From: Patescibacteria group bacterium
Lineage (GTDB): Bacteria; Patescibacteriota; Patescibacteriia; 2-01-FULL-39-33
Direction: 5' to 3'
DNA: 32,000 nt
Assembly: GCA_041662745.1 (NCBI GenBank)
Contig: JBAZRV010000003.1
Location: forward strand, 108,051-140,050
The notes beneath the pieces are model-generated. The model ran no database searches. It was not told the origin of the DNA and was given only the letters and a program-made list of their open reading frames with translations. Position 1 is the first letter of the stretch. Every line of letters starts with the position of its first letter. Of the stretch, positions 8,272 to 32,000 are shown in pieces. A program made the position numbers and the translations under genes.

Positions 8272-8631
8272 TTAGTTAGTGGTTTTCAACCGCTTAATCA
8301 TCTGATCGCGCAGTTTATTTTTAGGCAACATGCCCCAAACGGCTCGTCTGAGGACCTCGCCGGCATTGTCTTTCATGACCACGCTGGTTTTTTTGATTTT
8401 TAATCCGCCCGGATGGGTAGTGTGCCATTTGTATTCTTTTTGTTCCAGTTTCTTGCCGGTTAGTTTGAGCTTGGAACAGTTAGCGACCTCTACAAAATCT
8501 CCGGCATCAATATTGGGCGTAAAAGTGGCTTTATTTTTGCCACGTAAAATAATGGCGATACGCGTGGCTAAACGTCCGACCGGTTGGCCAGTAGCATCAA
8601 GCTGATGGGTTTTTCTTTCTATTTCTTTCAT
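8272..8631 (-). CDS. rplM: 50S ribosomal protein L13 (compact, 119 aa)
   Basis: DATGQPVGRLATRIAIILRGKNKATFTPN.D.GD.V.V and WHTTHPGG are L13 signatures. The gene is adjacent to rpsI. Confidence 0.9.
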   Translation of the reverse strand: MKEIERKTHQLDATGQPVGRLATRIAIILRGKNKATFTPNIDAGDFVEVANCSKLKLTGKKLEQKEYKWHTTHPGGLKIKKTSVVMKDNAGEVLRRAVWGMLPKNKLRDQMIKRLKTTN

Positions 8632-8644
8632 AAAATAAATTTAA

Positions 8645-8995
8645 TTAAATAAACTCAATGATAGCCACTTCCGCTCCGTCATTGACGCGTGGAGCTAATT
8701 TGACGATTCTGGTGTAGCCGCCTTTGCGATCTTTGTATTTCGGACCCAAAACTTCAAACAGTTTTTTGACCGCGCCTTGGGTGTAAAGCACCTTCAGGGC
8801 TTCACGGCGATTATGCAAAGTGTCGTTCTTGGCCAAGGTGATCAATTTTTCCACTTTGGGACGGGTTACCTGAGCTTTGGCCTTGGTGGTTTTGATTTTT
8901 TCGTAGACCACAAGAGAAGTAACCAAGCTGCGCAATAACGCTTCCCTTGGCGCCTTTTCACGACCCAATACTTTTCCTTTTCTGTTATGTCTCAT
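8645..8995 (-). CDS. rplQ: 50S ribosomal protein L17
   Basis: MRHNRKGKVLGREKAPREALLRSLVTSLVVYEKIKTTKAKA...GGYTRI. Confidence 0.95.
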   Translation of the reverse strand: MRHNRKGKVLGREKAPREALLRSLVTSLVVYEKIKTTKAKAQVTRPKVEKLITLAKNDTLHNRREALKVLYTQGAVKKLFEVLGPKYKDRKGGYTRIVKLAPRVNDGAEVAIIEFI

Positions 8996-9089
8996 AATAT
9001 GTTAGTCATAAAGTCTAAAGCCGAAGGTCTGGAAAGTTTAAAGAAAATCATTTAAACTCCGGGCTTGCGGTTTTTTGACTCAGTTCTGT

Positions 9090-9956
9090 TTATTCTTCAA
9101 TCTTTTTGGGGCGGCCGCGCTTTTTGGGCTTAGGCTCTTCCGTTGATTCTTCCCCAGCCCCTTCGGCGACTTCCGCGTTCTCTTCCAAAACTTCCTCAAC
9201 CTTTTCTTCAGCGGCGACTTCCGGCAGGATTATCGGCGCCTCAATATCAATTTCTTCTATTTCCCTGGTGCCGCCTTCCATAATCCAGCTAAACTGGTTG
9301 GTCAGGATTTCCGCCGCTTTTTTAACGGCATCTTCCGGGGAGATGGTGCCATCGGTTTCAACAGTTAAGATTAATTTATCATAATCGGTGCGTTGACCGA
9401 CGCGAGTCGCCTCTACCTCTAAGCCGACATTGATAACCGGCGTAAAAATAGAATCAGTCAAAATCGTGCCGATCTCGCCCTTGCCTTTATTCTGATCTTC
9501 CACCGGAACATAACCGATGCCTTTGGCTACGGTCAATTCCATTTCTATTTCGGCGTTTTCTGCGCTCAAGGAAGTGATGACGGCGTCTTTATTGACTACC
9601 TCGGCATCAACTGACTGCTGGATATCGGCGCCGGTAACTTTCTTTTTGCCTTCAGCTTTAAGTTGCAAGGTAACCGGTTCGTCGGAGTAAACCTTAAATC
9701 TTAAGGTTTTCAAATTAAGGATGATTTCCAAGACGTCTTCCGGCACATTCTCCATGGCTGAACATTCGTGCTTGACGCCTTTGATTTTAACGGCAGTAAC
9801 AGCGCCACCCGGCAGAGACGACAGTATGATGCGTCTTAGGGCGTTTCCTAATGTCAGGCCATAACCGGGAAAGCAGGGCTCAATTACAATTTGAGCTGAT
9901 TTGCCCGGAACCGATTCTTCAACAATGAATTTTTTAGGCAAAGGAATGTGTTTCAT
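9090..9956 (-). CDS. rpoA: DNA-directed RNA polymerase alpha subunit, N-terminal domain plus atypical tail
   Basis: The alpha-NTD motif [28 protein letters not shown] is present. The last 60 aa are acidic low-complexity ending in [13 protein letters not shown], with no recognisable alpha-CTD. Confidence 0.9.
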   Translation of the reverse strand: [288 protein letters not shown]

Positions 9957-10026
9957 AATATTTCCTCCTTGGCTGCCGGAACTTTAGCGCCGACAGCCTG
10001 TTAACTTAAAATAATTAAATTATTTA

Positions 10027-10665
10027 TTATTTGCTGTAGTACTCAACAATAGTTCGCCAATCAATATTAACGGCGATATCTCCTAATTTGGGCTGGCTGG
10101 TCACTTTTCCTTCAATCTTATCCGAGTCAATCGTCAGCCAGGCAGGAATGTTTGTCAGTTTGCTCAGTTTTTGTTTGATTTCTTTATAGCCGGAGCTTTT
10201 TAATATCTTGTCGGACAAAGCGATGACATCGCCGGTTTTGACTTGGTAAGAAGGAATGTTGACTTTTTCGCCGTTAACCCTGACATTGCCATGGCCGACC
10301 AACTGGCGGGCGGCGCGGCGGGAAGCGGCAAAACCCAAACGATAAACCGTATTATCCAAGCGTCCTTCCAAAAATCTAAACAGCCATTCGCCGGTATTGC
10401 CGACTTTGCTCAAAGACTTTTTAAAGTAAATTAAGAATTGCGCTTCATAAATGCCATACATGCGCTTGGCTTTTTGTTTTTCTGCCAATTGCTTGCCGAA
10501 ATTGGTTTTTTTACCAACACGTTGCAACGGGCCGTGCATGCCGGGAGGAAAATTGCGTTTAACCATCGGGCATTTGGCAGAGTTGCATTTTTCGCCTTTC
10601 AAAAATAATTTTTCACCGGCGCGGCGGCAAGATTTGCATTGAAGATTTCTAGTAAAGTTAGACAT
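10027..10665 (-). CDS. rpsD: 30S ribosomal protein S4
   Basis: N-terminal Cys cluster (CKSCRR..C..AKC) and an S4 RNA-binding domain (RLDNTVYRLGFA.SR..ARQLV.HG...VNG). Confidence 0.95.
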   Translation of the reverse strand: MSNFTRNLQCKSCRRAGEKLFLKGEKCNSAKCPMVKRNFPPGMHGPLQRVGKKTNFGKQLAEKQKAKRMYGIYEAQFLIYFKKSLSKVGNTGEWLFRFLEGRLDNTVYRLGFAASRRAARQLVGHGNVRVNGEKVNIPSYQVKTGDVIALSDKILKSSGYKEIKQKLSKLTNIPAWLTIDSDKIEGKVTSQPKLGDIAVNIDWRTIVEYYSK

Positions 10666-10692
10666 AAGGGATTAAGAATAGAAAAATAAAAA

Positions 10693-11169
10693 TTAAACGC
10701 GGCGCGGTCTGGGAGCGCGGCAGCCATTGTGAGGAATCGGGGTAATGTCTTTGATGCTGGAAACGATAAAACCATTGGCATTAATGGCGCGGACAGCTGA
10801 TTCGCGGCCGCCGCCGATGCCACGGACAAATACCGAGACTTCCTTTAAACCGTATTTTTTGACTTTTTCCGCAGCCGTTCTGACAATAATCGTCGCGGCA
10901 TAAGGAGTGGCCTTTTTGGGCCCCTTGAAACCGCATTGGCCGGCTGAACACCAGGACAACACATTGCCGTTTTGATCAGTGAAAGTGACAATGGTGTTGT
11001 TGTAGGTGGACTTAACGTAAGCCCGGCCGCTGGCTACCTGGCGGGCAGCGACGGTTTTTTTGACTTTCTTTTTCGACTTGTCGGCCGGTTTGGCGGCTTC
11101 GGCTTCAGCGTTAGCTTCTGCCGGAGCGGTCATAATGGTCGGTTCGTTTGTCAACAATTCTTCAGACAT
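10693..11169 (-). CDS. rpsK: 30S ribosomal protein S11 (with a roughly 30 aa Ala/Lys-rich N-terminal extension)
   Basis: [35 protein letters not shown] and the C-terminal [15 protein letters not shown]. Confidence 0.95.
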
Positions 11170-11199
11170 AATTATATTGGTATTTGACTATTATATTGA

Positions 11200-21860: not shown

Positions 21861-22000
21861 ATCCGATCCTCCTTGGTTGGTTGTGAATATTTAATGTGAA
21901 TATTTAATAATGTAAGGTGCTTACTTAACGTGTTATATTAGCAGATAACATCAAAAAGTCAAGAGTTTGGTTCTAACGTCCATATCTCATCATCAAATAA

Positions 22001-22025
22001 CGCCGAGAACATGGGGTTCTCGGCG
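22001..22025. terminator. hairpin cgccgagaac-N5-gttctcggcg (same stem as at 30000-30025)
   Basis: Perfect 10-bp stem with T-rich flanks on both strands, downstream of the interrupted gene. Confidence 0.5.
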
Positions 22026-22036
22026 TTTAATTTGTA

Positions 22037-22438
22037 CTAAGCGCCTAAACTTTTCAGATAGGCAATCGCTTCTTCGACCGTCGGCACAATCAAGCCGTAT
22101 TGCGCCAGAGTTTTTTTGGTGAAGTCTGGCTAGACGCTGTCCGGCCAAATCAAGATAATACGTTTAATGGACGGATCTTGCTTGATTTTCTGCTCATGCC
22201 AGCAATAGAAATAGCCAATCTCAGGTCCGATTCCCGGCAGAGGAAAGGAGGGTACCAAGGAGATCATGAATCCTGACTGTTTGATTGCTTTGTGATTTTG
22301 TTCCTAATAGTCATTGCCTTTATACTCTTCCCAATCATAAATTTTCAAATCGGGAAAGGTGGCCTTTATCATTGCCTTATAAGGAAATGGCGCGCGTCTA
22401 TCCGGCGGTCCGCCGAGGAAGATGTCATAGTCCATTAG
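22037..22438 (-). pseudogene. nucleoside 2-deoxyribosyltransferase-like gene interrupted by two in-frame TAG codons
   Basis: A single reading frame gives MDYDIFLGGPP..KGNDY*EQNHKAIKQSGFMISLV..GIGPEIGYFYC..IILIWPDSV*PDFTKKTL..LKSLGA*. The internal stops are at 22304-22306 and 22130-22132. Confidence 0.5.
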
Positions 22439-22715
22439 TTTTCTCCTCATTTGTAAAATACGACTCAACAAATTTTTCAATTTGTTCTTTCGTTTCCGGA
22501 TCAGCGTATACTGCCACCAGAAAATCCGGTCCGCCTCGAGAAAACGGCCTCTGTAATAAACCGTGTCCCTCGGGATAATCAATGACGATTTGCGGCCAAA
22601 GTTCCAAGTTTTCAACCGTTGAGCAAAATGATCCAAGGTCATTAATAAGCTTGATAATTTGGTCAAGGCTAATTCTTCCAACATGGATTCGTTTAGATTT
22701 TTCGCTTTCCAGCAT
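22425..22715 (-). CDS. hypothetical protein (96 aa)
   Basis: GGAGG SD and the consensus promoter at 22775-22803. Its end overlaps the ATG of the next gene (AATGGACTATGA). Confidence 0.5.
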   Translation of the reverse strand: MLESEKSKRIHVGRISLDQIIKLINDLGSFCSTVENLELWPQIVIDYPEGHGLLQRPFSRGGPDFLVAVYADPETKEQIEKFVESYFTNEEKTNGL

Positions 22716-22774
22716 GAGTTTCCTCCTTTGTTTTGTTGGTAAAAAATTGTTAATGAGCAGTATTTATTGTCAGT

Positions 22775-22803
22775 ATCTTAATAAAGTAGTAGTTTTTTGT
22801 CAA
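22775..22803 (-). promoter_or_regulatory. sigma70-like promoter of the 22715-22037 gene pair
   Basis: Minus strand TTGACA (22803-22798), 17 nt spacer, TAAGAT (22780-22775). Confidence 0.5.
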
Positions 22804-22867
22804 TAGTTCTAACATCCACGTTACGGTATCAAAAAACACCCCGATGATGGGGCGTTTTTCATGAACT

Positions 22868-22986
22868 GGGTGTTTATGAACAAATCCGAACCGAATTTCA
22901 ACAAAATTCATGATCGGTCGGGCGGAATTCCCCCCCAAACCCCTCCTTCCGCCCGACCGAAACATCTGGACGGCTGAGGCGGAATT
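22868..22986 (+). repeat. repeat X (left end of the element), 119 bp, perfect inverted partner at 25752-25870
   Basis: Base-by-base comparison of 22868-22986 with the reverse complement of 25752-25870 gives 119/119 identical. It contains a 14-bp-stem hairpin tcggtcgggcggaa/ttccgcccgaccga (22914-22927/22947-22960). Confidence 0.95.
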
Positions 22987-23029
22987 GCAATTTCCAATTT
23001 TTCTTTGGCGGCGGAATTTTTAATTAGTA

Positions 23030-23596
23030 TTATATACAAATTATACTTTTGAGATAAGTGAATATCACACTATGGGCGTATAAAAATAATAAAAAAGCTA
23101 ACAATATTAATACGATTGAAATCACCCGCATTTTAGAATAATCTACTAGTAAAAATTTTGGCACCTCATAAGTATTATTATCTATACAGTGATCATATAT
23201 TTTCAAAATATTATTTTTATTAATTACTTTTTTATCATTCTTGTCTATTGGATAAATCTGTCGATTATCAATTTTTATAATCGACATGGAATAAGTGTCC
23301 GTTTCTAATATACTATTAAAATATATATAAGTTTCGATTTTTCTTCCGCGATATATTCCGGATATAATATTCGACGCAGACTCACCAATAGGATTAATCT
23401 CTCTGAAATACTGAAATTTTAAATTATGCTTTTTTGCCCATATTCTTTCTTCGATACTTTTTAAAAAGCGGTAAAGGTACCATAAAAATACAAGGATAGA
23501 CAAAGACAACACTAAAGACGCGATAGCCAGAACTGGCTCACGTACATCAGAATCTAATGTTTTTGTAAAATAACAAACTAGTGGCGTAATTGACAT
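23030..23596 (-). CDS. membrane protein with N- and C-terminal TM segments (188 aa), AT-rich cargo
   Basis: ORF with hydrophobic segments at both ends. It lies 4 nt from the upstream gene's stop. No family recognised. Confidence 0.55.
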   Translation of the reverse strand: MSITPLVCYFTKTLDSDVREPVLAIASLVLSLSILVFLWYLYRFLKSIEERIWAKKHNLKFQYFREINPIGESASNIISGIYRGRKIETYIYFNSILETDTYSMSIIKIDNRQIYPIDKNDKKVINKNNILKIYDHCIDNNTYEVPKFLLVDYSKMRVISIVLILLAFLLFLYAHSVIFTYLKSIICI

Positions 23597-23599
23597 AAT

Positions 23600-24511
23600 T
23601 TAATTTAGATGTAGCCCAAAATTTGCCCCAAGACTAATGCATTCATCTTTTGCTTCTTGAGTTTTTGCCTTATTGCATTGACTTAAATCAGAATTATAGT
23701 GCTTCATAATCACCCAAAGGTAACACAATCCAGCCTTGCTTTGTAGCTTAACGTAATCACACATTGAGAGATCGCTAATATTTCCATTAGTTGCTCGGTT
23801 GACGATGCAATAATCTCTGTAGCCATCTGGTATATCAAGGCAATTTATTGGATTGTCATTCATTATGCCAGCGGAAGAAACAATCATATTATAACAATCT
23901 CCAATATTAGACTTATTACTAATTTTAGAGCAAAGAGAAAAATTACTATCTAGGTTATTACTAATAACCCAGCCATAACAATCACCAGAATTATATTTAG
24001 TGTCTGGCCCACCGTGAGTCGTTACCCCGCCTTGGATTTTATCGCAGTAACTTATTTTATCAGCATCTAAAACCCCACTACTAGCGTTTGTCATAATTGT
24101 TTGCTGACAATTCAAATCACAATTATTTTCAGTTTGCCAATAAGTGCATTTTCCTGAACAGCAGTTACACTGTTCGCTATATAACGATTGCATTTTTTGT
24201 CCTTGACAGTACATATATTTAAAGCAGCATTCGCCATTTTGATCGCCACAACCTTTATTTAAATCACCTAATAAGGCCACTGGTTTTGTAATTGGATTTG
24301 CAGTAGAATTCGGAGTAGCCACAACCGTCTTTGGTGTAGCACTTGGTGCTTTGGTAACTACTTGATTCTGTGCGGGAGCAGTTTGAGCGGCACCCTGCTC
24401 TTTTACTGGTTCTGGCTGTGCCTGATTTTGTTCAACTTTGGAAGCTCCAAGAGAGCACCCAGTCAGCAATATGGCGAGGCCAAGGGCTGAAAACACTAAA
24501 AGTTTTTTCAT
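23600..24511 (-). CDS. secreted Cys-rich repeat lipoprotein (303 aa)
   Basis: Lipobox MKKLLVFSALGLAILLTGC, then a Pro/Gln/Ala/Thr linker, then a Cys-dense module (CGDQNGECCFKYMYC..CNCCSGKC). These are followed by about 5 repeats of the pattern C-x8-12-(D)CY-x2-V/I-x8-12. Confidence 0.7.
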   Translation of the reverse strand: MKKLLVFSALGLAILLTGCSLGASKVEQNQAQPEPVKEQGAAQTAPAQNQVVTKAPSATPKTVVATPNSTANPITKPVALLGDLNKGCGDQNGECCFKYMYCQGQKMQSLYSEQCNCCSGKCTYWQTENNCDLNCQQTIMTNASSGVLDADKISYCDKIQGGVTTHGGPDTKYNSGDCYGWVISNNLDSNFSLCSKISNKSNIGDCYNMIVSSAGIMNDNPINCLDIPDGYRDYCIVNRATNGNISDLSMCDYVKLQSKAGLCYLWVIMKHYNSDLSQCNKAKTQEAKDECISLGANFGLHLN

Positions 24512-24534
24512 AATTTTTAATTTTTATTCTAAAT

Positions 24535-25335
24535 TTACGTTGTCATTTTCAACTCAAACTCTTTGAGTTTTTCAGAGTCATATTTATCATTAATGCGAGT
24601 CAGAATATCAAATATTCCTTTCCATAAACAAATACTAAACATCAATGGATAAAGAAAAATGAATAATGTTTGATATTCATAGCCAATATAGGCACGCAAG
24701 AATATGAATATTATCGCGGCTGGAAATATGGCAAACATAGCAGAAAAAGCAGACATCATAATAACTAATATTCTAACGAGCGCTGGATTGATCTGGTTCA
24801 ATACGATATTAAATAAATATTCTTCTTGGTTCTTGATTAAGTTTGATGACAAAAAAGCTTTAACCTTTTTCATAACACCTGACTGCATGGATTTAACCGT
24901 CAAATAGCCTTCTTGAATTGCAAAATAAATTAAATTTCCAAAAACTATATATGGACTTTTTAACGGATAATGTAAAATAACTCCACTAATAGAATAATGC
25001 TGGCCACTAGATATTGCAACAATAATAAAATAAGCGAATAGAGTGATGCCACCCACAAGAAGAATTGTGACTGGAGCGTAAATAAAAACTTCTCCCCATC
25101 TAAAATAAAATATTTTAAATAAACAATAAATAGCTAAAATCACCGTCTCAAATAAATAAACAAAAAACAAAGTATAAAAATCGTAGTAATTAAAAATTAC
25201 TCCCAAAAACGGTATAAAATTATAAGTCAATATATAAAAAGATTTGAGCGAAAAAAAGTCCTTAACAAATCGGCTAAACCCCATTTTGAGTAATGGCCAA
25301 AATTCTGAAGACTTTATGGCTGGTGGGTGATACAT
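24535..25335 (-). CDS. polytopic membrane protein (266 aa), AT-rich cargo
   Basis: About 7 hydrophobic segments rich in Phe/Ile/Tyr. No family recognised. Confidence 0.6.
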   Translation of the reverse strand: MYHPPAIKSSEFWPLLKMGFSRFVKDFFSLKSFYILTYNFIPFLGVIFNYYDFYTLFFVYLFETVILAIYCLFKIFYFRWGEVFIYAPVTILLVGGITLFAYFIIVAISSGQHYSISGVILHYPLKSPYIVFGNLIYFAIQEGYLTVKSMQSGVMKKVKAFLSSNLIKNQEEYLFNIVLNQINPALVRILVIMMSAFSAMFAIFPAAIIFIFLRAYIGYEYQTLFIFLYPLMFSICLWKGIFDILTRINDKYDSEKLKEFELKMTT

Positions 25336-25386
25336 AAGTAGTAAATTGTTTATATTATAGCAAAAACTACATTCAAAAACAATAAA

Positions 25387-25593
25387 CTATTTTAGCAGTT
25401 CCCACGCTTCTACTCCTAAAGCATGAGCTAATTTGTTTAAATTTTCAAGCGTAGGATTAATATGTCCGCTTTCTACTCGACAGATATACGCACGGTCAAT
25501 TTTACTGGAACGAAAAACATCGCCTTGAGTCAGGCCTTTATCTTCCCTTATCTTCTTAAAATTATACGCTAATTTTTTACTTAATTTATGCAT
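25387..25593 (-). CDS. XRE/Cro-type helix-turn-helix transcriptional regulator (68 aa)
   Basis: IREDKGLTQGDVFRSSKIDRAYICRVESGHINPTLENLNKLAHALGV is a classic HTH_3 pattern. Start set at ATG 25593 because the track start is a TTG. Confidence 0.85.
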   Translation of the reverse strand: MHKLSKKLAYNFKKIREDKGLTQGDVFRSSKIDRAYICRVESGHINPTLENLNKLAHALGVEAWELLK

Positions 25594-25674
25594 AGTTATC
25601 CACAGGTATTTTACCAATTATTGTATATTTAAACAATATTGCTGTATACTACAATATAGATGCTTGATTTAGCA

Positions 25675-25701
25675 TTAAGAAAAAGAAAAAGTTTGATTTT
25701 G
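25675..25701 (+). repeat. repeat W (20 bp perfect core at 25679-25698), inverted partner at 25967-25993
   Basis: gaaaaagaaaaagtttgatt at 25679-25698 equals the reverse complement of 25970-25989. One copy lies upstream of the XRE gene and the other 17 nt upstream of the recombinase ATG. Confidence 0.85.
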
Positions 25702-25703
25702 TC

Positions 25704-25733
25704 CAAAATAAAGTTCGAGCCGATTTTTTTAAT
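25704..25733 (-). repeat. repeat Z' (30 bp), perfect inverted copy of recombinase coding sequence 27333-27362
   Basis: The reverse complement of 25704-25733 is attaaaaaaatcggctcgaactttattttg, identical to 27333-27362. Confidence 0.9.
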
Positions 25734-25751
25734 CTGGTTCTTTGGCGGTTT

Positions 25752-25870
25752 AATTCCGCCTCAGCCGTCCAGATGTTTCGGTCGGGCGGAAGGAGGGGTT
25801 TGGGGGGGAATTCCGCCCGACCGATCATGAATTTTGTTGAAATTCGGTTCGGATTTGTTCATAAACACCC
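25752..25870 (-). repeat. repeat X' (inverted copy of X)
   Basis: See X: 119/119 identity in inverted orientation. Confidence 0.95.
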
Positions 25871-25944
25871 AGCCAGTTCAATTTTTTCGAATTCAAAACC
25901 GAATTCCAACCGTTTTTTGGCTTAAATTCAAATTTTTTACCTTG
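25871..25944 (-). repeat. repeat Y' (74 bp), inverted copy of the recombinase 3' coding end 27363-27436
   Basis: 73/74 identical. The single difference (27368 C versus T) is a synonymous GGC/GGT change in the recombinase reading frame. Confidence 0.9.
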
Positions 25945-25966
25945 GTTCCGATTACTATCGGAACGC

Positions 25967-25993
25967 CAGAATCAAACTTTTTCTTTTTCTTTA
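25967..25993 (-). repeat. repeat W' (inverted copy of W) immediately upstream of the recombinase gene
   Basis: See W. It is preceded by a perfect palindrome gttccgat-tact-atcggaac (25945-25964). Confidence 0.85.
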
Positions 25994-26006
25994 ATTCAAT
26001 CTAATT

Positions 26007-27452
26007 ATGAAATACTTTCTTTACGCCCGCAAGTCAACAGACGAAGAGGAGCGTCAAGTCCTTTCTATTGAAGCCCAGCTCGCAGAGCTGATGGAGTTAG
26101 CCACCAAAGAAAAATTGGAAATTGCGGACTCGCTCTGCGAGTCCAAAACCGCCAAAGAACCAGGCCGAAAAATTTTTGGCGAAATGCTCTCTCGGATTGA
26201 AAAAGGTGAAGCCGACGGAATTTTAGCGTGGCACCCTGATCGATTGGCCAGAAATAGCGTGGACGGCGGTAAAATCATCTACATGGTGGATATCGGCCAG
26301 ATCAAAACGCTAAAATTCCCGACTTTTTGGTTTGAGAATACTCCGCAAGGGAAATTCATGCTCAATATCGCTTTCGGTCAGAGCAAATACTATGTTGATA
26401 ATTTAAGCGAAAATGTAAAACGCGGTTTCAGGCAAAAGCTAAGGCGCGGCGAATATCCTAACAAAGCGCCAATCGGTTATCTTAACGACCGTACAGCCAA
26501 AACCGTGCTTATTGATCCTCTACGCGCCAAGCTGATAATAAAAATGTTTGAAATGTATAACACAGGAGAATTTTCGCTTAAATTTCTTAAAGATAAGTTT
26601 TGCGATATCGGCTTGACCAGCAAGCGAGGCAAAATCCTGACTGTCGGCATGATTTCCAATATATTGAGCAATCCCTTTTATTGCGGAGTATTCAGGTTTA
26701 ATGGCGAAAAGTATCAAGGCAAATACGAGCCAATTATTTCCAAAAAGCTTTTTGATGAAGTTCAGGCGGTAATGAAAGATCGAGGCCGGCCATTAGGGCA
26801 AGATAAACACGACTTCGCCTTTACCGGACTGATGAAATGCAAATGTGGCGCCTGCATTACCGCCGAACGGCAAAAAGGCCATATCTATTATCGCTGTACG
26901 AAGAAAATGGGAATCTGCGACGAAAAATATATTCGCGAGGAAAACTTGCTGGAGCAATTCCATGGCCTTTTTCAAAAAGCTGTTTTGCCTGATGACTGGA
27001 TTCGTAATATGCTCGCCAAACTCGGCGAAGAAGAGAAAAGCGCTATCAAATCATCTTCTAGTCTGATTGATGAGGTAAAAACGCAAATAACGGTCACTGA
27101 AGGCAAGCTGGACAAGCTACTTGATGACCGATTAGAGGGTTTACTCGACAAGGACGACTATTTGCGCAAGAAAGAACAACTCATCAATCAGAAAATTGAT
27201 TTGGAGGACAAAATCCAGTCAATCAGGCAAACAGGAAATAATTGGCTCGAACCGATGAGAGAATTCCTTTTCGCCAATAAACAAACCAAAAAAGTCGCCA
27301 ACGACGGCGACCTTTTGGAAATCCGAGCATTTATTAAAAAAATCGGCTCGAACTTTATTTTGCAAGGCAAAAAATTTGAATTTAAGCCAAAAAACGGTTG
27401 GAATTCGGTTTTGAATTCGAAAAAATTGAACTGGCTGACTGACTCGGTCTAG
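26007..27452 (+). CDS. large serine recombinase (481 aa)
   Basis: Resolvase catalytic N-terminus MKYFLYARKSTDEEERQ..SIEAQ (nucleophile Ser in YARKST) and GILAWHPDRLARN. It also has a recombinase domain, a zinc ribbon (CKCGACITAE...YYRCTKK..C) and a coiled-coil tail. No SD or obvious promoter upstream. Confidence 0.9.
   Translation: MKYFLYARKSTDEEERQVLSIEAQLAELMELATKEKLEIADSLCESKTAKEPGRKIFGEMLSRIEKGEADGILAWHPDRLARNSVDGGKIIYMVDIGQIKTLKFPTFWFENTPQGKFMLNIAFGQSKYYVDNLSENVKRGFRQKLRRGEYPNKAPIGYLNDRTAKTVLIDPLRAKLIIKMFEMYNTGEFSLKFLKDKFCDIGLTSKRGKILTVGMISNILSNPFYCGVFRFNGEKYQGKYEPIISKKLFDEVQAVMKDRGRPLGQDKHDFAFTGLMKCKCGACITAERQKGHIYYRCTKKMGICDEKYIREENLLEQFHGLFQKAVLPDDWIRNMLAKLGEEEKSAIKSSSSLIDEVKTQITVTEGKLDKLLDDRLEGLLDKDDYLRKKEQLINQKIDLEDKIQSIRQTGNNWLEPMREFLFANKQTKKVANDGDLLEIRAFIKKIGSNFILQGKKFEFKPKNGWNSVLNSKKLNWLTDSV
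27333..27436 (+). repeat. repeats Z (27333-27362) and Y (27363-27436) inside the recombinase 3' end
   Basis: The partners of Z' and Y' described above. Y ends in the core TGAACTGGCT. Confidence 0.9.
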
Positions 27453-27733
27453 AACCGATCCATATCAAGTATTATAAGGGCTTTTCGAAAATATTTCCAG
27501 AGGCGATTTGAGGCGTCTCGGTCGGGGTAAAATATACTATGAAATGCGACAAATGCGACAGTACTTTGGAACTGTCTAAATATAGAATTTTGAGCAACAA
27601 AATGAGACAAATGAGACACAAAATGAGGTTTTCATAATGTAATATAAAAGTGTAATTTGTATCTAATTTTAGATTAAAAAAGAGCGAGACACACCTAAAA
27701 ATAACTGTCTCACTTTGTATAAAATTTTTGTGC

Positions 27734-27762
27734 TTGACAAACCTCTCAAAATAATATATAAT
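27734..27762 (+). promoter_or_regulatory. consensus sigma70 promoter of the radical SAM operon
   Basis: TTGACA (27734-27739), 17 nt spacer, TATAAT (27757-27762). Confidence 0.65.
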
Positions 27763-27855
27763 ATCATGTTAGTCAAAATGGCTAATTACTAAGAGGTACA
27801 TTAACATTTTACGGTATTTAACCAATCAACCCAACCCCAAACAAGGAGGAAATCC

Positions 27856-28968
27856 ATGAGTACTACGAACATGAGTTTTGCTATCAGACCGACAGACCGC
27901 TGTAACCTGAATTGTGACTATTGCTACGCCAGAGTCGCCGATCCAAAAGACATGAGTCCGGAGACACTGAGGTTGGTTTTGCAACGGATCGCCGATAGCT
28001 ATCCGGGGCATGTTACAATTAGTTGGACTGGCGGAGAACCGCTGCTGATGGGTCCCGATTTTTTTCAACGAATCGCCGAGATTCAGGCAGAGTTGCCGCA
28101 GGTGCAGTTTACCAATATTCTGCAAACCAATTTGACATTACTTCAGGATTGGGTCATCACTTTTTTGTCTGCTCACAATTGGCAGGTGCGCACCAGTCTC
28201 GATCTTCCGCCTGCCAATCATGACGAGCTGAGGATCAAAGGAAATTTCAATGCGACGATGATGCGCATACGGCGCCTACAAGAAGCCGGCGTGCCGGTCA
28301 ATATCAATACCGTCATAACGTCGAAAAACGTCGGATCAGCACCGGAGATATACTGGTTTCTTAATAACAACAGAATCAACAGTTTCTCTGTTTCGCGATT
28401 CATCTTGCAGGGTAACGGGGTGCAAAATGCCCATCTGGCAATTAAGGAGTCGACTCGTTTCGGCCGTTTCTTGATTGAATTGTTTGATCTTTGGATGGCC
28501 GATACCAGCGAAACGAAAATACGGAAAATCACGCCACTCAATACATTGATGGAAGCCTGCGAGTATTACATGCGCGGGAAAGTAAATCCGGAAGCGTGTT
28601 TCCATTGTCAAAATCAGGTTTACGCAATCGGACCGACTGGTGACATTTATCCGTCTTGCAACAAGTTTTTTGGCTTGCCCGGCACTTGCCTGGGCAACAT
28701 CTCTGAACTGGAGCTGGCGGACGTCACTGATTCTCCTGAACGCGTTGACTTTCTGGAACAGGTCAAGAAAGTTGGCGAGAAGGTTTGCATCGGCTGTCAG
28801 TACATGCCGATCTGCCGCGGTGGCTGTTACTATGTCGCTTTTGCCACTCTACCTGAATTGGACAAGATTACGAAACGTGACCAATTCTGCAAGGGATACT
28901 ATTTGGTGTTTGATCATATCATCGATTATCTGCAGAAAATGCGTCGAACAGAGGAGGCAATCCAATGA
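27856..28968 (+). CDS. radical SAM/SPASM-domain enzyme (370 aa), anSME-like architecture without an N-terminal RRE
   Basis: CNLNCDYC at residues 16-23, GGEPLL, and C-terminal auxiliary-cluster Cys motifs (CFHCQN..., CIGCQYMPICRGGCYY, FCKGYY). AGGAGG SD present. Confidence 0.85.
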   Translation: MSTTNMSFAIRPTDRCNLNCDYCYARVADPKDMSPETLRLVLQRIADSYPGHVTISWTGGEPLLMGPDFFQRIAEIQAELPQVQFTNILQTNLTLLQDWVITFLSAHNWQVRTSLDLPPANHDELRIKGNFNATMMRIRRLQEAGVPVNINTVITSKNVGSAPEIYWFLNNNRINSFSVSRFILQGNGVQNAHLAIKESTRFGRFLIELFDLWMADTSETKIRKITPLNTLMEACEYYMRGKVNPEACFHCQNQVYAIGPTGDIYPSCNKFFGLPGTCLGNISELELADVTDSPERVDFLEQVKKVGEKVCIGCQYMPICRGGCYYVAFATLPELDKITKRDQFCKGYYLVFDHIIDYLQKMRRTEEAIQ

Positions 28969-29978
28969 CTGCGATAACGACCATACCAGTGTTAAGATCG
29001 CTGAAGTTCGCGGTCGGCTATGACTGCAATATGCATTGCGGTTTCTGCCTTCAGCAAATGAGCGACCGAAAACCGATTCTGCCATTCGAGCTGGCTCATA
29101 AAATCCTGACGGAAGAAATGGTGGCTCGGGACGTACGACTTATTACTTTGACTGGCGGTGAACCGACCTTCGGCCCCTATCGTGAATTATCACTTAAGAT
29201 CATCAGGCTTGCCACGAGTCTGGGCATGGAGACGTCGATCTTCACTAATGGTGTTTTGCTTGATGATGCGACTCTCGATGAATTCAAGGTAGCCGGTCTG
29301 AGCCGTTTCCGGGTTAGTTTGTATGATCCGATTGATTGGACTGACGTCAGGAAACTGATCGCCGGATTGCGCCGGCGTGACTGGCCGACGATGTTCAAAT
29401 ACACAGTAACGAAAGAGAACTATCCGCTATTGGATTCTGTTCTCAAAATGTTGCCGGAAGCTGACATAGATTGGTTCCAGATTAAGCCGTACAATCGCTT
29501 GGAGATTGAACAGATCGACCAGCAGTACGAGCTTGAACCCAAGCAGGTACTGGCGATGGCCAAAACTTTGCTCGGTTTCCGCAGGAACTTTCCAGCGATC
29601 AAAGTTGATCTTCTGCCGCTCTGCTATGAATTCCTGGTGGATGACAGTTTGACTACCGATAACCTGAGTCTCTGCCACTGCGGCAAGGGTTCTCGCGGTT
29701 ACATGGTCATTGATCCCGAGGGCGAGGTTCGTATCTGCGGCGCTTATCCTGATCCGATCGGCAACGCCAATACCGACACCATCGCTGATTTGTGGATTAA
29801 CCATCCGCTATTAGCGCAAGTCAGGAATCTGGCAAATAGGCCGAGGCCAATCGAATGCCAGGACTGTAGCCATTGGGAAAAATGTGCTGCAACGGACTGC
29901 CATAGTGCGACCTTTGCCAAGTTCGGCAATTTCAATCATGGTAATCCGCAATGTCCGCTTATAGCCGGACGACAATAA
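28965..29978 (+). CDS. second radical SAM/SPASM(twitch)-domain enzyme (337 aa)
   Basis: CNMHCGFC, TGGEPTF and C-terminal CHCGKG...ICG, CQDCSHWEKCAATDCH. ATGA overlap with the upstream gene and a GAGGAGG SD. Confidence 0.85.
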   Translation: MTAITTIPVLRSLKFAVGYDCNMHCGFCLQQMSDRKPILPFELAHKILTEEMVARDVRLITLTGGEPTFGPYRELSLKIIRLATSLGMETSIFTNGVLLDDATLDEFKVAGLSRFRVSLYDPIDWTDVRKLIAGLRRRDWPTMFKYTVTKENYPLLDSVLKMLPEADIDWFQIKPYNRLEIEQIDQQYELEPKQVLAMAKTLLGFRRNFPAIKVDLLPLCYEFLVDDSLTTDNLSLCHCGKGSRGYMVIDPEGEVRICGAYPDPIGNANTDTIADLWINHPLLAQVRNLANRPRPIECQDCSHWEKCAATDCHSATFAKFGNFNHGNPQCPLIAGRQ

Positions 29979-29999
29979 CGTCAATAAACGTACATGATA

Positions 30000-30037
30000 C
30001 GCCGAGAACAAGGAAGTTCTCGGCGTGTTTTTATTTT
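30000..30037 (+). terminator. rho-independent terminator of the radical SAM operon
   Basis: cgccgagaac-aaggaa-gttctcggcg followed by a T-rich tract (tgtttttatttt). Confidence 0.7.
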
Positions 30038-30116
30038 GTCAAAATTATAGTTTCCAACAGCTTATCAACTCAGGCCCCCTGGACTCCCTAGCGGGGTTGC
30101 GTCATTCATTAGTTAT

Positions 30117-31430
30117 ATGAATGAAACAACAGCGCCTGTGGGGGCTACGGGCACGATAATAGCCCCGCCAAAGGTCAAGTACTGCCTTTATGCAAGGAAA
30201 TCAACTGAGTCAGAGGAGCGGCAGATCCTATCCATAGACAGCCAGATCAAGGAGATGCTCTTATTGGCAGAAAAGGAGGGTTTAGATGTCGTAACCATGA
30301 AGCGTGAATCGCACTCAGCTAAGGAAACCGGCCAGCGACCAGTTTTTAATGAGATTATTGAGGAGATTAAGTCAGGTCAGTACAATGGGATTCTGACTTG
30401 GGCGCCAGATCGCATTAGCAGGAATGCCGGTGACTTGGGTAAAATCGTAGATTTGATGGATTCCGGGCTATTAAAAGACATCCGGACTTACGGCCAGAGA
30501 TTCGGCAATAATCCTAATGAGAAATTCTTACTGATGATCTTGGGATCTCAGGCTAAGCTGGAAAATGACAATAAAGCGGTCAATGTTAAAAGAGGACTAC
30601 GAAGCCGGTGTGCCATGGGTTGGAGGCCGGGCCAGGCGCCAACCGGTTACCTTAATGAAAAACATGTCGACAAAAAATGCCAATGCCGGTTAGATCCCAA
30701 AAGAGCGCCGATTATCAAACAGATGTTTGAAAAAGTCGCTAATGAGGGCTGGAGTGGCCGAAAAGTCTACCGCTGGCTTAAAGACATTGATTTTAAGACT
30801 AAAAACGGCAAGCACCTGGTGCTTGCCAATATCTATATTCTTCTTAGAAATCCATTCTATTATGGCGAGTTCGAATATCCAGTCAAAAGTGGCGTTTGGT
30901 ATACCGGCAAACATACGCCGATTATTACTAGGGAGATTTACGATAAGGTTCAGCTATTGCTGAGCGACCGCTATGTATCCAGAACGGAAAGCAAGGAATT
31001 CGCTTTCACCAAATTGTTCAAATGCGGCTATTGCGGATCGGGCATCTCGGCCGATGAGAAATTTAAGAAACTAAAAGATGGCGGCACCAACCGCCATGTC
31101 TATTACTTTTGCACCAAAGCGAGGGATATTGATTGCAAAAATCAGCCGATCAATGAAACCGATTTGATCAGCGAGCTGAACCGCTTAATGGACAAGATTG
31201 ATCTGGATGAGCTTGGCGTCAAGAAAAAATTAGAGGATGAAATGAGAAGGTATAACCGATTCAATGTCGGAGTGCTAGGCAAAAAGCAAAAGGAATTCAA
31301 TCAAGATGTGGATATTAGAAATTATGCAAAATACCTGCTTAGAGATGGCACTATTTTGGAAAAGAGAGAATTATTGGGTTGCCTGAAAAGTAAGGCGATA
31401 TTGAAGGATAGGAAAATTATTTTGGAGTAG
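30117..31430 (+). CDS. large serine recombinase, paralog of 26007-27452 (437 aa)
   Basis: KYCLYARKSTESEERQILSIDSQ, GILTWAPDRISRN and the zinc ribbon CGYCGSG...YYFCTK..C. The N-terminal roughly 170 residues align with the first recombinase with many identities (by eye). Confidence 0.9.
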   Translation: MNETTAPVGATGTIIAPPKVKYCLYARKSTESEERQILSIDSQIKEMLLLAEKEGLDVVTMKRESHSAKETGQRPVFNEIIEEIKSGQYNGILTWAPDRISRNAGDLGKIVDLMDSGLLKDIRTYGQRFGNNPNEKFLLMILGSQAKLENDNKAVNVKRGLRSRCAMGWRPGQAPTGYLNEKHVDKKCQCRLDPKRAPIIKQMFEKVANEGWSGRKVYRWLKDIDFKTKNGKHLVLANIYILLRNPFYYGEFEYPVKSGVWYTGKHTPIITREIYDKVQLLLSDRYVSRTESKEFAFTKLFKCGYCGSGISADEKFKKLKDGGTNRHVYYFCTKARDIDCKNQPINETDLISELNRLMDKIDLDELGVKKKLEDEMRRYNRFNVGVLGKKQKEFNQDVDIRNYAKYLLRDGTILEKRELLGCLKSKAILKDRKIILE

Positions 31431-31483
31431 AAAAGTAATCAAAAATAATGCCTTCATAAAACTGTGGCATTTAGCTAATAATT

Positions 31484-31768
31484 TTACATTACACCCTCAG
31501 GACAATCAGTAATTATTTTTGTTGCTCGTTGTTTTCTATCCATCTCCTCTGCCTGTAAAGCCGAATTCAAATCGGCCAAATCATCAACTATTTTTGTTGC
31601 ATCTTTATAAACATTTTTTGCTTCATCATTCATTTTTGAAAGACTTATTTTAGGATCAAGCAATTTATGAACAAATCTATTTCTAATATTTTTATTAAAT
31701 TTTTTAAGATTTGCAATTAACTCCTTATCTTCGCAGTATTTATCTAGTTCAAAAATTAAATTTCCCAA
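31484..31768 (-). CDS. hypothetical helical protein with an RxxxxH (HEPN-like) motif; possibly 5'-truncated
   Basis: IRNRFVHKL fits Rx4H. The frame is open upstream to a TAA at about 31850 but contains no ATG, and the track start is a TTG. Confidence 0.3.
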   Translation of the reverse strand: MGNLIFELDKYCEDKELIANLKKFNKNIRNRFVHKLLDPKISLSKMNDEAKNVYKDATKIVDDLADLNSALQAEEMDRKQRATKIITDCPEGVM

Positions 31769-31955
31769 AGTATATTTTGAATATTTTTCTTCACTGGGGT
31801 CAATATAAAGAATTGTGTCAAATTTACTAAGTGTTAGACTTCCTGAAATTAAAAATTGATAAGTAACGATTGTTGAGACTGTAAAATATTATGTGTAAAT
31901 GGTATCTTGGGATGTAGGACGATTGGCGTCCTGCCTAACCCAAGATCCTATGCCT

Positions 31956-31990
31956 AAAACAAAAAGAAGGCCGGCTGTCGATGAGCCGGC
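31956..31990 (-). terminator. rho-independent terminator for a minus-strand gene lying beyond the right edge
   Basis: gccggct/agccggc stem (31970-31976/31984-31990) followed on the minus strand by CTTCTTTTTGTTTT. Confidence 0.5.
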
Positions 31991-32000
31991 GAATGAGTTG

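Follow-up and report, generated by a model that had tools for sequence, protein, structure and literature searches.

The present study concerns a 32,000-nucleotide (nt) stretch of DNA from a Patescibacteria group bacterium (assembly GCA_041662745.1, contig JBAZRV010000003.1, positions 108,051 to 140,050), hereafter called the window, and in particular a four-gene cassette that lies between long inverted repeats next to a serine recombinase gene. All coordinates are positions in the window, and the features of the locus are collected in Table 1. Ordinary chromosomal genes, among them those for glycosyltransferases, RpoA, AlaRS, and MnmA, occupy the left part of the window. GC content is 26-34% within the cassette compared with approximately 44% in the flanks, and the four enclosed genes, encoding an XRE protein, a membrane protein, a Cys-rich lipoprotein, and a second membrane protein, were all found on one strand, the minus strand, as a preliminary description made from the sequence alone had stated. 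The perfect 119-base pair (bp) inverted repeat reported in that description is real and perfect, and its length was corrected in a self-comparison of the window to 121 nt, with 2 nt more at the outer end. The two arms, X and X', are 100% complementary and are separated by 2765 nt; approximately 1e-60 perfect inverted repeats of this length would be expected by chance in 32 kb, and no further copies of X were found elsewhere in the window. The hairpin with a 14-bp stem described for each arm was also observed (22914-22927 paired with 22947-22960 in X, mirrored at 25778-25791 and 25811-25824 in X'), together with the three GCGGAATT motifs (22922, 22979, and 23011).

A repeat of this kind in metagenomic DNA raises the question of chimeric or fold-back assembly, and several short contigs do end at or near the repeats, and one assembly includes two contigs whose overlap, at 22758-22898, is exactly k=141. 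However, an independent MEGAHIT k=141 contig (L001, ERZ27249449) matches window positions 22758-32000 exactly and covers both 121-nt arms and the cassette in the same orientation with 100% identity, which argues against an assembly artefact. Moreover, the same architecture was found in more than 50 independent metagenome-assembled genomes (MAGs) or metagenomes generated with different assemblers, and the repeat boundaries match the geometry of crossover core and half-site described below. The probability that the repeats are an artefact is therefore practically negligible.

The gene next to X' had been identified as a serine recombinase gene, and its 481-residue product contains Resolvase (PF00239, E=3e-19), Recombinase (PF07508, E=4e-14), and Zn_ribbon_recom (PF13408, E=1e-6) domains, all of which pass the cut-offs. 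Residues S10 and R8 are invariant in the recombinase alignment. The protein matches the integrase model PHROG 95 with E=1e-76, compared with E=5e-15 for an invertase model that aligns with the N-terminal domain only. At least 7997 proteins are homologous at E<=1e-10; the closest, at 93% identity, come from a Ca. Buchananbacteria MAG (locus L007) and a Patescibacteria MAG (L008), and most of the others belong to Patescibacteria as well. Two features of the locus had been missed in the preliminary description. First, a second inverted repeat of 75 nt and 99% identity, C2' and C2, abuts the first. C2' repeats the terminal part of the recombinase gene (its 3' end) in inverted orientation, and thus this gene is also bracketed by inverted repeats. 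The C2 sequences of the window, L007, and L008 are strongly different, and yet each is perfectly mirrored in the C2' of its own locus. Second, four short inverted copies of parts of the recombinase gene or its leader (N1', N2', C1', and u') lie at the inner ends of X and X'. The repeat appears to be functionally tied to the recombinase.

The layout of this region was compared among 76 homologous loci, mostly from Patescibacteria. In approximately 60 of the 76, the final 75-160 nt of the recombinase gene are matched by an inverted arm located 50-250 nt before the ATG, usually with 98-100% identity, and in approximately 25 of those loci an X/X' repeat (83-100% identical) abuts this pair, with N1' on the distal side and C1' and u' on the proximal side. 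In more than 40 of the 52 loci scanned, the recombinase gene abuts, at its 3' end, an opposite-strand tRNA gene (for Gln, Ser, Asn, Trp, Arg, and others). The upstream/3'-end arm terminates approximately 6 nt inside the tRNA, and its final 6 nt (TGGCNG) are the complement of the NGCCA end of the tRNA; in the window, TGG, the codon for recombinase Trp476, corresponds to the complemented CCA end of a tRNA. A CGAAC motif occurs on both sides of the arm end. Its distance from that end is 18 nt towards X in 32 loci (and 16-17 nt in a further 11), compared with 13 nt towards the tRNA in 28 loci (and 11-12 nt in a further 12). The window contains CGAAC at 22887 on the X side and AGAAC on the other side, exactly 13 nt from the arm end. 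According to a published rule for serine integrases, the motif bound by the zinc-ribbon domain lies 5 bp nearer the crossover in attB, the host attachment site, than in attP, the site of the element (PMC3783163). The same 5-bp offset was found here (+18 for X, +13 for the tRNA), and therefore C2 joined to X is read as attP. By the same geometry, C2 joined to the tRNA would be attR, the flank joined to X would be attL, and X' joined to C2' would be a second complete attP in inverted orientation, with quasi-symmetric arms at 25836-25856 and 25890-25910 around a centre at approximately 25873.

The C-terminal tails of the recombinases are consistent with this assignment. When the arm is read into X, a conserved tail of the form IRT(D/E/F)F..N followed by a stop codon appears in approximately 55 of 60 loci; in the window this tail is GVYEQIRTEFQQNS followed by a stop codon, encoded on the minus strand by X' in frame after C2'. 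In the assembled orientation, the tail is antisense-tRNA sequence in the relatives, and most homologues end in RDSNP or DSNQ because these residues are the antisense translation of the tRNA T-arm. Among 120 clusters of recombinases, the tail was tRNA-antisense in at least 72 and native in approximately 8. Judging from these sequences, the recombinase tail as assembled is probably junk and the native C-terminal tail is probably encoded by X, while the conservation of the tail may partly be mere conservation of half-site DNA, as ATC-CGA-AC encodes I-R-T. Two other identities were rejected for the sequences at the ends. X was not recognized as a tRNA or pseudo-tRNA by ARAGORN or Rfam and resembles the tRNA-Gln of L008 only at the core and CGAAC, and the sequence following the recombinase gene has no similarity to X that would make it a diverged copy. 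The one tRNA gene of the window, tRNA-Gln(TTG) at 1159-1230, is 21 kb from the repeats; the nearest relatives sit at tRNA-Gln(CTG).

Based on these results, we propose that each 121-bp arm is probably one copy of the P' side of attP, a site present twice, in inverted orientation, in a 4.57-kb tRNA-targeting element (22866-27437). The proposal draws on the observed repeat structure and its conservation throughout the family, the half-site geometry, the association with tRNA genes, a circular relative, and the turnover of cargo. The element would be mobilized by its own large serine recombinase. Its attP would straddle the 3' end of the recombinase gene, with the last 75-160 nt of the gene (C2) as the P arm and X as the P' arm, and a second complete attP (X' and C2'), inverted, would be kept just upstream of the recombinase gene in every element. 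The free circle would thus consist of two unique segments, cargo and recombinase, separated by one pair of inverted repeats of approximately 200 bp. Integration would proceed through the 3'-end attP into the 3' end of a tRNA gene, the target in the window being a degenerate tRNA-like site. This step would split the 3'-end attP, sending X to the far end (attL) and leaving C2 beside the target (attR), while the internal attP would remain intact; the arrangement of X, cargo, and X' would follow from this split. A free form of the predicted kind was observed in a 59% identical relative (L015), in which a 4636-nt contig has identical 51-nt ends and hence corresponds to a circle of 4585 bp, a size matching the 4572 bp of the window element. 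The order in L015 is recombinase-C2-X-N1'-cargo-u'-C1'-N2'-X'-recombinase, that is, a circle of two unique segments and one inverted-repeat pair, with an assembly gap at the position of C2'. A phage origin of the element was considered and rejected, as only two of 11 IMG/VR matches were true relatives (46-48% identity) and the element contains no phage genes.

Table 1. Features of the putative integrative element and its borders, ordered by position in the window.
Feature	Position	Strand	Remarks
X, distal repeat arm	22866-22986	+	putative left element end (attL side); CTG core 22866-22868; P'-type half-site motif CGAAC 22887-22891; hairpin
N1'	22987-23012	-	inverted copy of recombinase codons 32-40 (26100-26125); 26 nt, 96%; marks distal cargo boundary
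D', AT-rich stretch	23017-23050	-	86% complementary to 27646-27680, 200 nt downstream of recombinase
Cargo module, whole	23030-25617	-	four genes; unrelated genes at same place in L008, L015, L088, and L093
Membrane protein, 188 aa	23030-23596	-	
Lipoprotein, 303 aa	23600-24511	-	lipobox LLTGC; many Cys
Membrane protein, 266 aa	24535-25335	-	
XRE/HTH protein	25387-25617	-	Pfam HTH_3; most like restriction-modification "control proteins"
u'	25674-25701	-	inverted copy of recombinase 5' leader (25967-25995); 29 nt, 93%; recurs in relatives
C1'	25704-25733	-	inverted copy of recombinase codons 443-452 (27333-27362); 30 nt, 100%; holds invariant GGCTCGAAC core
N2'	25734-25751	-	inverted copy of recombinase codons 47-52 (26146-26163); 18 nt, 100%
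X', proximal repeat arm	25752-25872	-	putative P' half of internal inverted attP copy
C2', P arm copy	25870-25944	-	with X', putative complete second attP
Large serine recombinase, 481 aa	26007-27452	+	Resolvase, Recombinase, Zn_ribbon_recom domains; last codons cross attachment-site core
C2, P arm of attachment site	27363-27437	+	putative right element end (attR side)
B', host-side half-site	27438-27470	+	tRNA T-arm-like GGTCTAGAACC; AGAAC 27451-27455

The cargo of these elements is variable. In L008, whose recombinase is 93% identical, the same skeleton encloses genes for a methyltransferase, a restriction-like protein, and a hydrolase, and the L015 circle carries Vsr, Dcm, and a restriction enzyme; cargo varies even between near-identical elements. 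PADLOC, PHROGs, and NCBIfam gave no annotation, defence included, for the three membrane protein and lipoprotein genes of the window. Because close relatives hold other genes in this place, the cassette is not specifically a lipoprotein switch; the lipoprotein cassette appears from these comparisons to be exchangeable mobile-element cargo, and it should be annotated as such rather than as a phase-variation locus.

In the preliminary description, the segment 22987-25751 was put forward as a candidate invertible segment. In the corresponding model, the segment would be flipped in a programmed manner through X and X' by the adjacent recombinase, resulting in phase variation of the lipoprotein and/or recombinase genes. 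The segment is indeed flanked by perfect inverted repeats with a serine recombinase gene beside it, a recombinase half-site is present in each arm, the arms are 100% identical in many family members, and the neighbouring recombinase segment was inverted during evolution in one relative (L010). The inference from arm identity to ongoing recombination or a recent origin was reasonable. However, coexisting or alternating orientations were not found: the cargo has the same orientation in all of the approximately 25 relatives with both arms, none being flipped, and relative to the marker fragments it has one orientation wherever these were detected (N1' in at least 12 loci, C1' in more). A single orientation is likewise resolved by contig L001. 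The preliminary description had itself held that arms diverging in close relatives at an unchanged orientation would count against a switch, and this was observed in L008, where the arms have diverged to 88% identity. Moreover, close relatives carry unrelated cargo, so that the repeats are not bound to lipoprotein genes, and the recombinase is of the integrase type rather than the Hin/Gin type. Finally, each arm ends at the crossover core and provides half a site; the full sites would be an attL and an attP, a pair that serine integrases are reported not to recombine (PMC3783163). An integrase-type enzyme, an apparently duplicated attP, replaceable cargo, and one orientation in approximately 25 loci speak against a dedicated lipoprotein switch, and we consider programmed phase variation very unlikely.

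Several relatives depart from the standard arrangement. In L010, a tRNA-Trp gene is followed by a decayed C2' arm (49 identical alignment columns), a recombinase gene reading into X, the fragments N2, C1, and u, and co-directional cargo; in other words, the recombinase segment is inverted relative to the standard loci. In L093, the recombinase gene reads into a different X type and lies between two X types, with co-directional XRE and TaqI-like genes. The orientation of the recombinase segment relative to tRNA and X thus differs between loci (standard loci compared with L010), and two isomers of one same element were not seen. In L088 (Ga0315268_10003943, 8265-11193), a unit with the order X-N2-C1-u-cargo-N1-X' was found 60 nt downstream of an intact tRNA-Gln(CTG) gene, with no recombinase gene within 8 kb on one side and 2 kb on the other and with ordinary host genes around. 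In L089 and L092, N1-X' is joined to other flanks. In L025, two recombinase copies occur in tandem (1-986 and 3678-4664; 989 nt, 91%) with cargo between inverted C2-X units, a sequence arrangement that suggests accretion of elements at one tRNA site.

These forms might indicate that X, cargo, and X' are a separate non-autonomous element with terminal inverted repeats (TIRs) of approximately 120 bp, mobilized in trans, and that C2', recombinase, and C2 constitute a unit with its own TIRs. The X-bounded unit of L088 without a nearby recombinase, the N1-X' junctions of L089 and L092, the recombinase between two different X types in L093, and the occurrence of X or a tRNA on either side of the recombinase segment would be explained in this manner. 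However, X and C2 are P-type or lack a B-type motif, and hence separate circles could not fuse by attP x attB; fusion of recombinase and cargo circles by this reaction was rejected because both ends are P-type. In addition, the conserved recombinase tail is encoded in X, which argues for X as an integral partner of the gene, and no target-site duplications were seen. The sequence of the L088 unit would fit either a decayed element or a non-autonomous relative, and it may equally be a derivative after loss of the recombinase. Two independent elements are therefore an unlikely explanation.

Several observations weigh against an integrative element with a duplicated attP. The element ends in the window are placed by analogy with relatives and by half-site geometry. 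A scan of 22000-28200 with ARAGORN and Rfam E-values revealed no intact tRNA, including after the recombinase gene. A mirror-image GTTCG motif in the P arm is not conserved across the family. Exact-protein look-ups revealed neither an empty site (22865 joined to 27438) nor a circular junction for this strain; indirect support comes from the L015 circle and from L088, a related lineage whose tRNA-Gln locus is intact and free of a recombinase. Canonical serine integrases are reported not to recombine pairings other than attP x attB (PMC3783163). Since attP x attP and attP x attR are among the excluded pairs, the recombinase is not expected to flip either segment; flipping, if occurring, would be host-mediated or non-canonical, and homogenization of the arms would presumably be the work of host recombination. 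The 88% identity of the arms in L008 means that identity is not maintained in all lineages. Finally, the retention of a second attP and the presence of short recombinase-derived fragments are left unexplained by integration as proposed here.

All contigs retrieved by the exact-protein look-ups of flanks and cargo were collinear with the window and broke off near the repeats, and an empty site or alternative orientation in the exact strain was accordingly not supported. The two overlapping contigs mentioned above (L004 and L001, both ERZ27249449) share exactly 141 nt, ending 33 nt inside X, and the X variants of relatives diverge exactly after nucleotide 22898; a co-occurring strain might carry a different version of X or of the cargo there. 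An inversion was rejected as the cause of this overlap, since the branch lies at 22898/22899, whereas an inversion would place the shared sequence at 22846-22986 and an empty site would place it at 22725-22865.

Concerning the identity of the repeats, we infer that the two attP copies exchange sequence through flip-flop recombination or gene conversion and so stay identical, and that inversion is possible for the recombinase segment and perhaps for the cargo. Inversion as a property of the element is plausible from the sequences, given arms that are identical in most lineages, the mirrored C2 and C2', and the one relative with an inverted recombinase segment. Folding of single-stranded DNA to pair the two attP copies, as in CTX phage or integron attC sites, was rejected because a serine recombinase cutting both strands of such a stem would leave loop-capped chromosome ends instead of an integrated element.

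The short recombinase-derived fragments (18-38 nt) are a consistent feature of the family. N1' adjoins the distal arm in at least 12 relatives, and N2' was found in 23 of 62 loci at 229-326 nt upstream of the ATG (0/62 in a shuffled control). Across the 62 loci, the fragments track the gene of their own locus, with 1.6 (N1), 0.7 (N2), and 2.2 (C1) mismatches to it compared with 8.8, 3.6, and 8.8 mismatches to the genes of other loci, which suggests co-evolution of fragments and gene within each locus. In C1, the GGC-TCG-AAC core consists of identical codons in 95-100% of the 62 diverged recombinase genes, and these invariant GGCTCGAAC codons probably reflect a constraint at the DNA level. The motif encodes G447-S448-N449 at 27345-27353, occurs again at 27243-27252 and as its reverse complement at 26726-26733 and 25713-25721, and is similar both to the half-site motif of attP and to a complemented tRNA T-arm. 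N1 always has its boundary at nt +119/120 of the open reading frame (ORF), beside a palindrome of 20 nt (26126-26145) that the copies lack, and the 34-nt stretch D' sits at the distal cargo boundary. The GC-rich hairpin of X is also widespread: 27 of 48 loci, compared with 2 of 42 controls, have a stem of 9 bp or more. Some lineages have a C-rich loop of 17-23 nt, whereas the loop of others is its exact reverse complement and hence G-rich, which looks like a flip of the sequence between the stem arms.

A more far-reaching possibility, which we regard as doubtful, is that the element is a two-segment, two-attP machine with inversion as part of its life cycle. In the resting state, the integrase gene would converge on the tRNA and end in the junk antisense-tRNA tail; in the active state, it would lie downstream of the tRNA and would have regained its native IRTEF tail from the spare attP. 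By means of their paired inverted attP sites, elements could also exchange cargo or recombinase segments as cassettes, and N1', N2', C1', and u' would be functional as recombination or pairing sites or as an antisense leader.

Several known systems share parts of this architecture. In the yeast 2-micron plasmid, identical inverted repeats with FLP recombinase targets (FRT) split a circle, and isomers differing in segment orientation are formed. As in this plasmid and in inverted-repeat genomes of the plastid type, two unique segments and one long repeat pair, with a putative recombinase target in each copy, were found here, with L015 compared with L010 and L093 as candidate isomers; unlike in the 2-micron plasmid, a serine integrase is not expected to act on two identical attP sites, there are no replication genes, and flipping is suggested by comparison between loci. 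Serine DNA invertases (Hin/hix, Gin/gix, Cin of P1 with 0.6-kb repeats, and PinQ) are proteins of approximately 190 residues with a C-terminal helix-turn-helix that act on two full identical sites. The present locus similarly has a segment bounded by inverted repeats beside a serine recombinase gene, but the enzyme is a 481-residue integrase, each X arm contains half a site, and one cargo orientation was found. In mycobacteriophages with integration-dependent alteration of the repressor, attP lies inside the repressor gene and the C-terminus differs between the integrated and free states. An attP in a coding sequence is also predicted here, with the native IRTEF tail swapped for an antisense-tRNA tail; the gene altered in this way, however, encodes the integrase, and its native 3' end is also preserved as a spare inverted copy upstream. 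As for TIR transposons and miniature inverted-repeat elements, X-bounded units lacking a recombinase occur in L088, L089, and L092, without any target-site duplication having been seen.

The large serine integrases (phiC31, Bxb1, A118/LI, and SPbeta, with TnpX, CcrAB, and XisF as relatives) have the same domains, short quasi-symmetric sites, and the 5-bp motif shift. The family described here differs from them in targeting many tRNA 3' ends or T-arms, in an attP that overlaps the last codons of the integrase gene, in a second inverted attP beside this gene, in the size of the elements (approximately 4.6 kb), and in having no evident recombination directionality factor. The tRNA-gene islands and tycheposons (PMC4383910; bioRxiv 10.1101/2020.12.28.424599), small cargo elements at tRNA 3' ends that supply the terminal tRNA nucleotides, resemble the present ones. 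These, however, mostly have tyrosine integrases (910 of 937 tycheposons) and direct end repeats, and an inverted duplicated attP is described for none of them. A full-text literature search returned no description of the architecture, which suggests that this layout is a new form of serine-integrase integrative element.

A further region of interest was observed immediately to the right of the element. It contains a 32-residue Cys-containing ORF, MKCDKCDSTLELSKYRILSNKMRQMRHKMRFS (27539-27637), a sigma-70-like promoter with 12 of 12 perfect positions (27734-27762), two radical SAM/SPASM peptide-maturase-like genes (27856-29978), and the gene of a second large serine recombinase of 437 residues (30117-31430), 39% identical to the first. 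From its gene content, the region 27539-31430 looks like a possible second island, a cassette of the ribosomally synthesized and post-translationally modified peptide (RiPP) type with its own integrase. No repeats of the X/C2 kind were found around it within the window.

Patescibacteria, also known as the Candidate Phyla Radiation (CPR), have tiny genomes and few characterized mobile elements, and the present locus appears to be part of a very large family. Elements of approximately 4.6 kb would insert into tRNA genes in these bacteria, bringing with them cargo such as restriction-modification systems and membrane proteins. If the inverted duplication does control the integrase or allow cassette exchange, it would represent a novel mode of control for a unidirectional serine integrase that lacks a directionality factor. 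Moreover, the family could yield compact integrases with defined tRNA targets for organisms that are difficult to manipulate.

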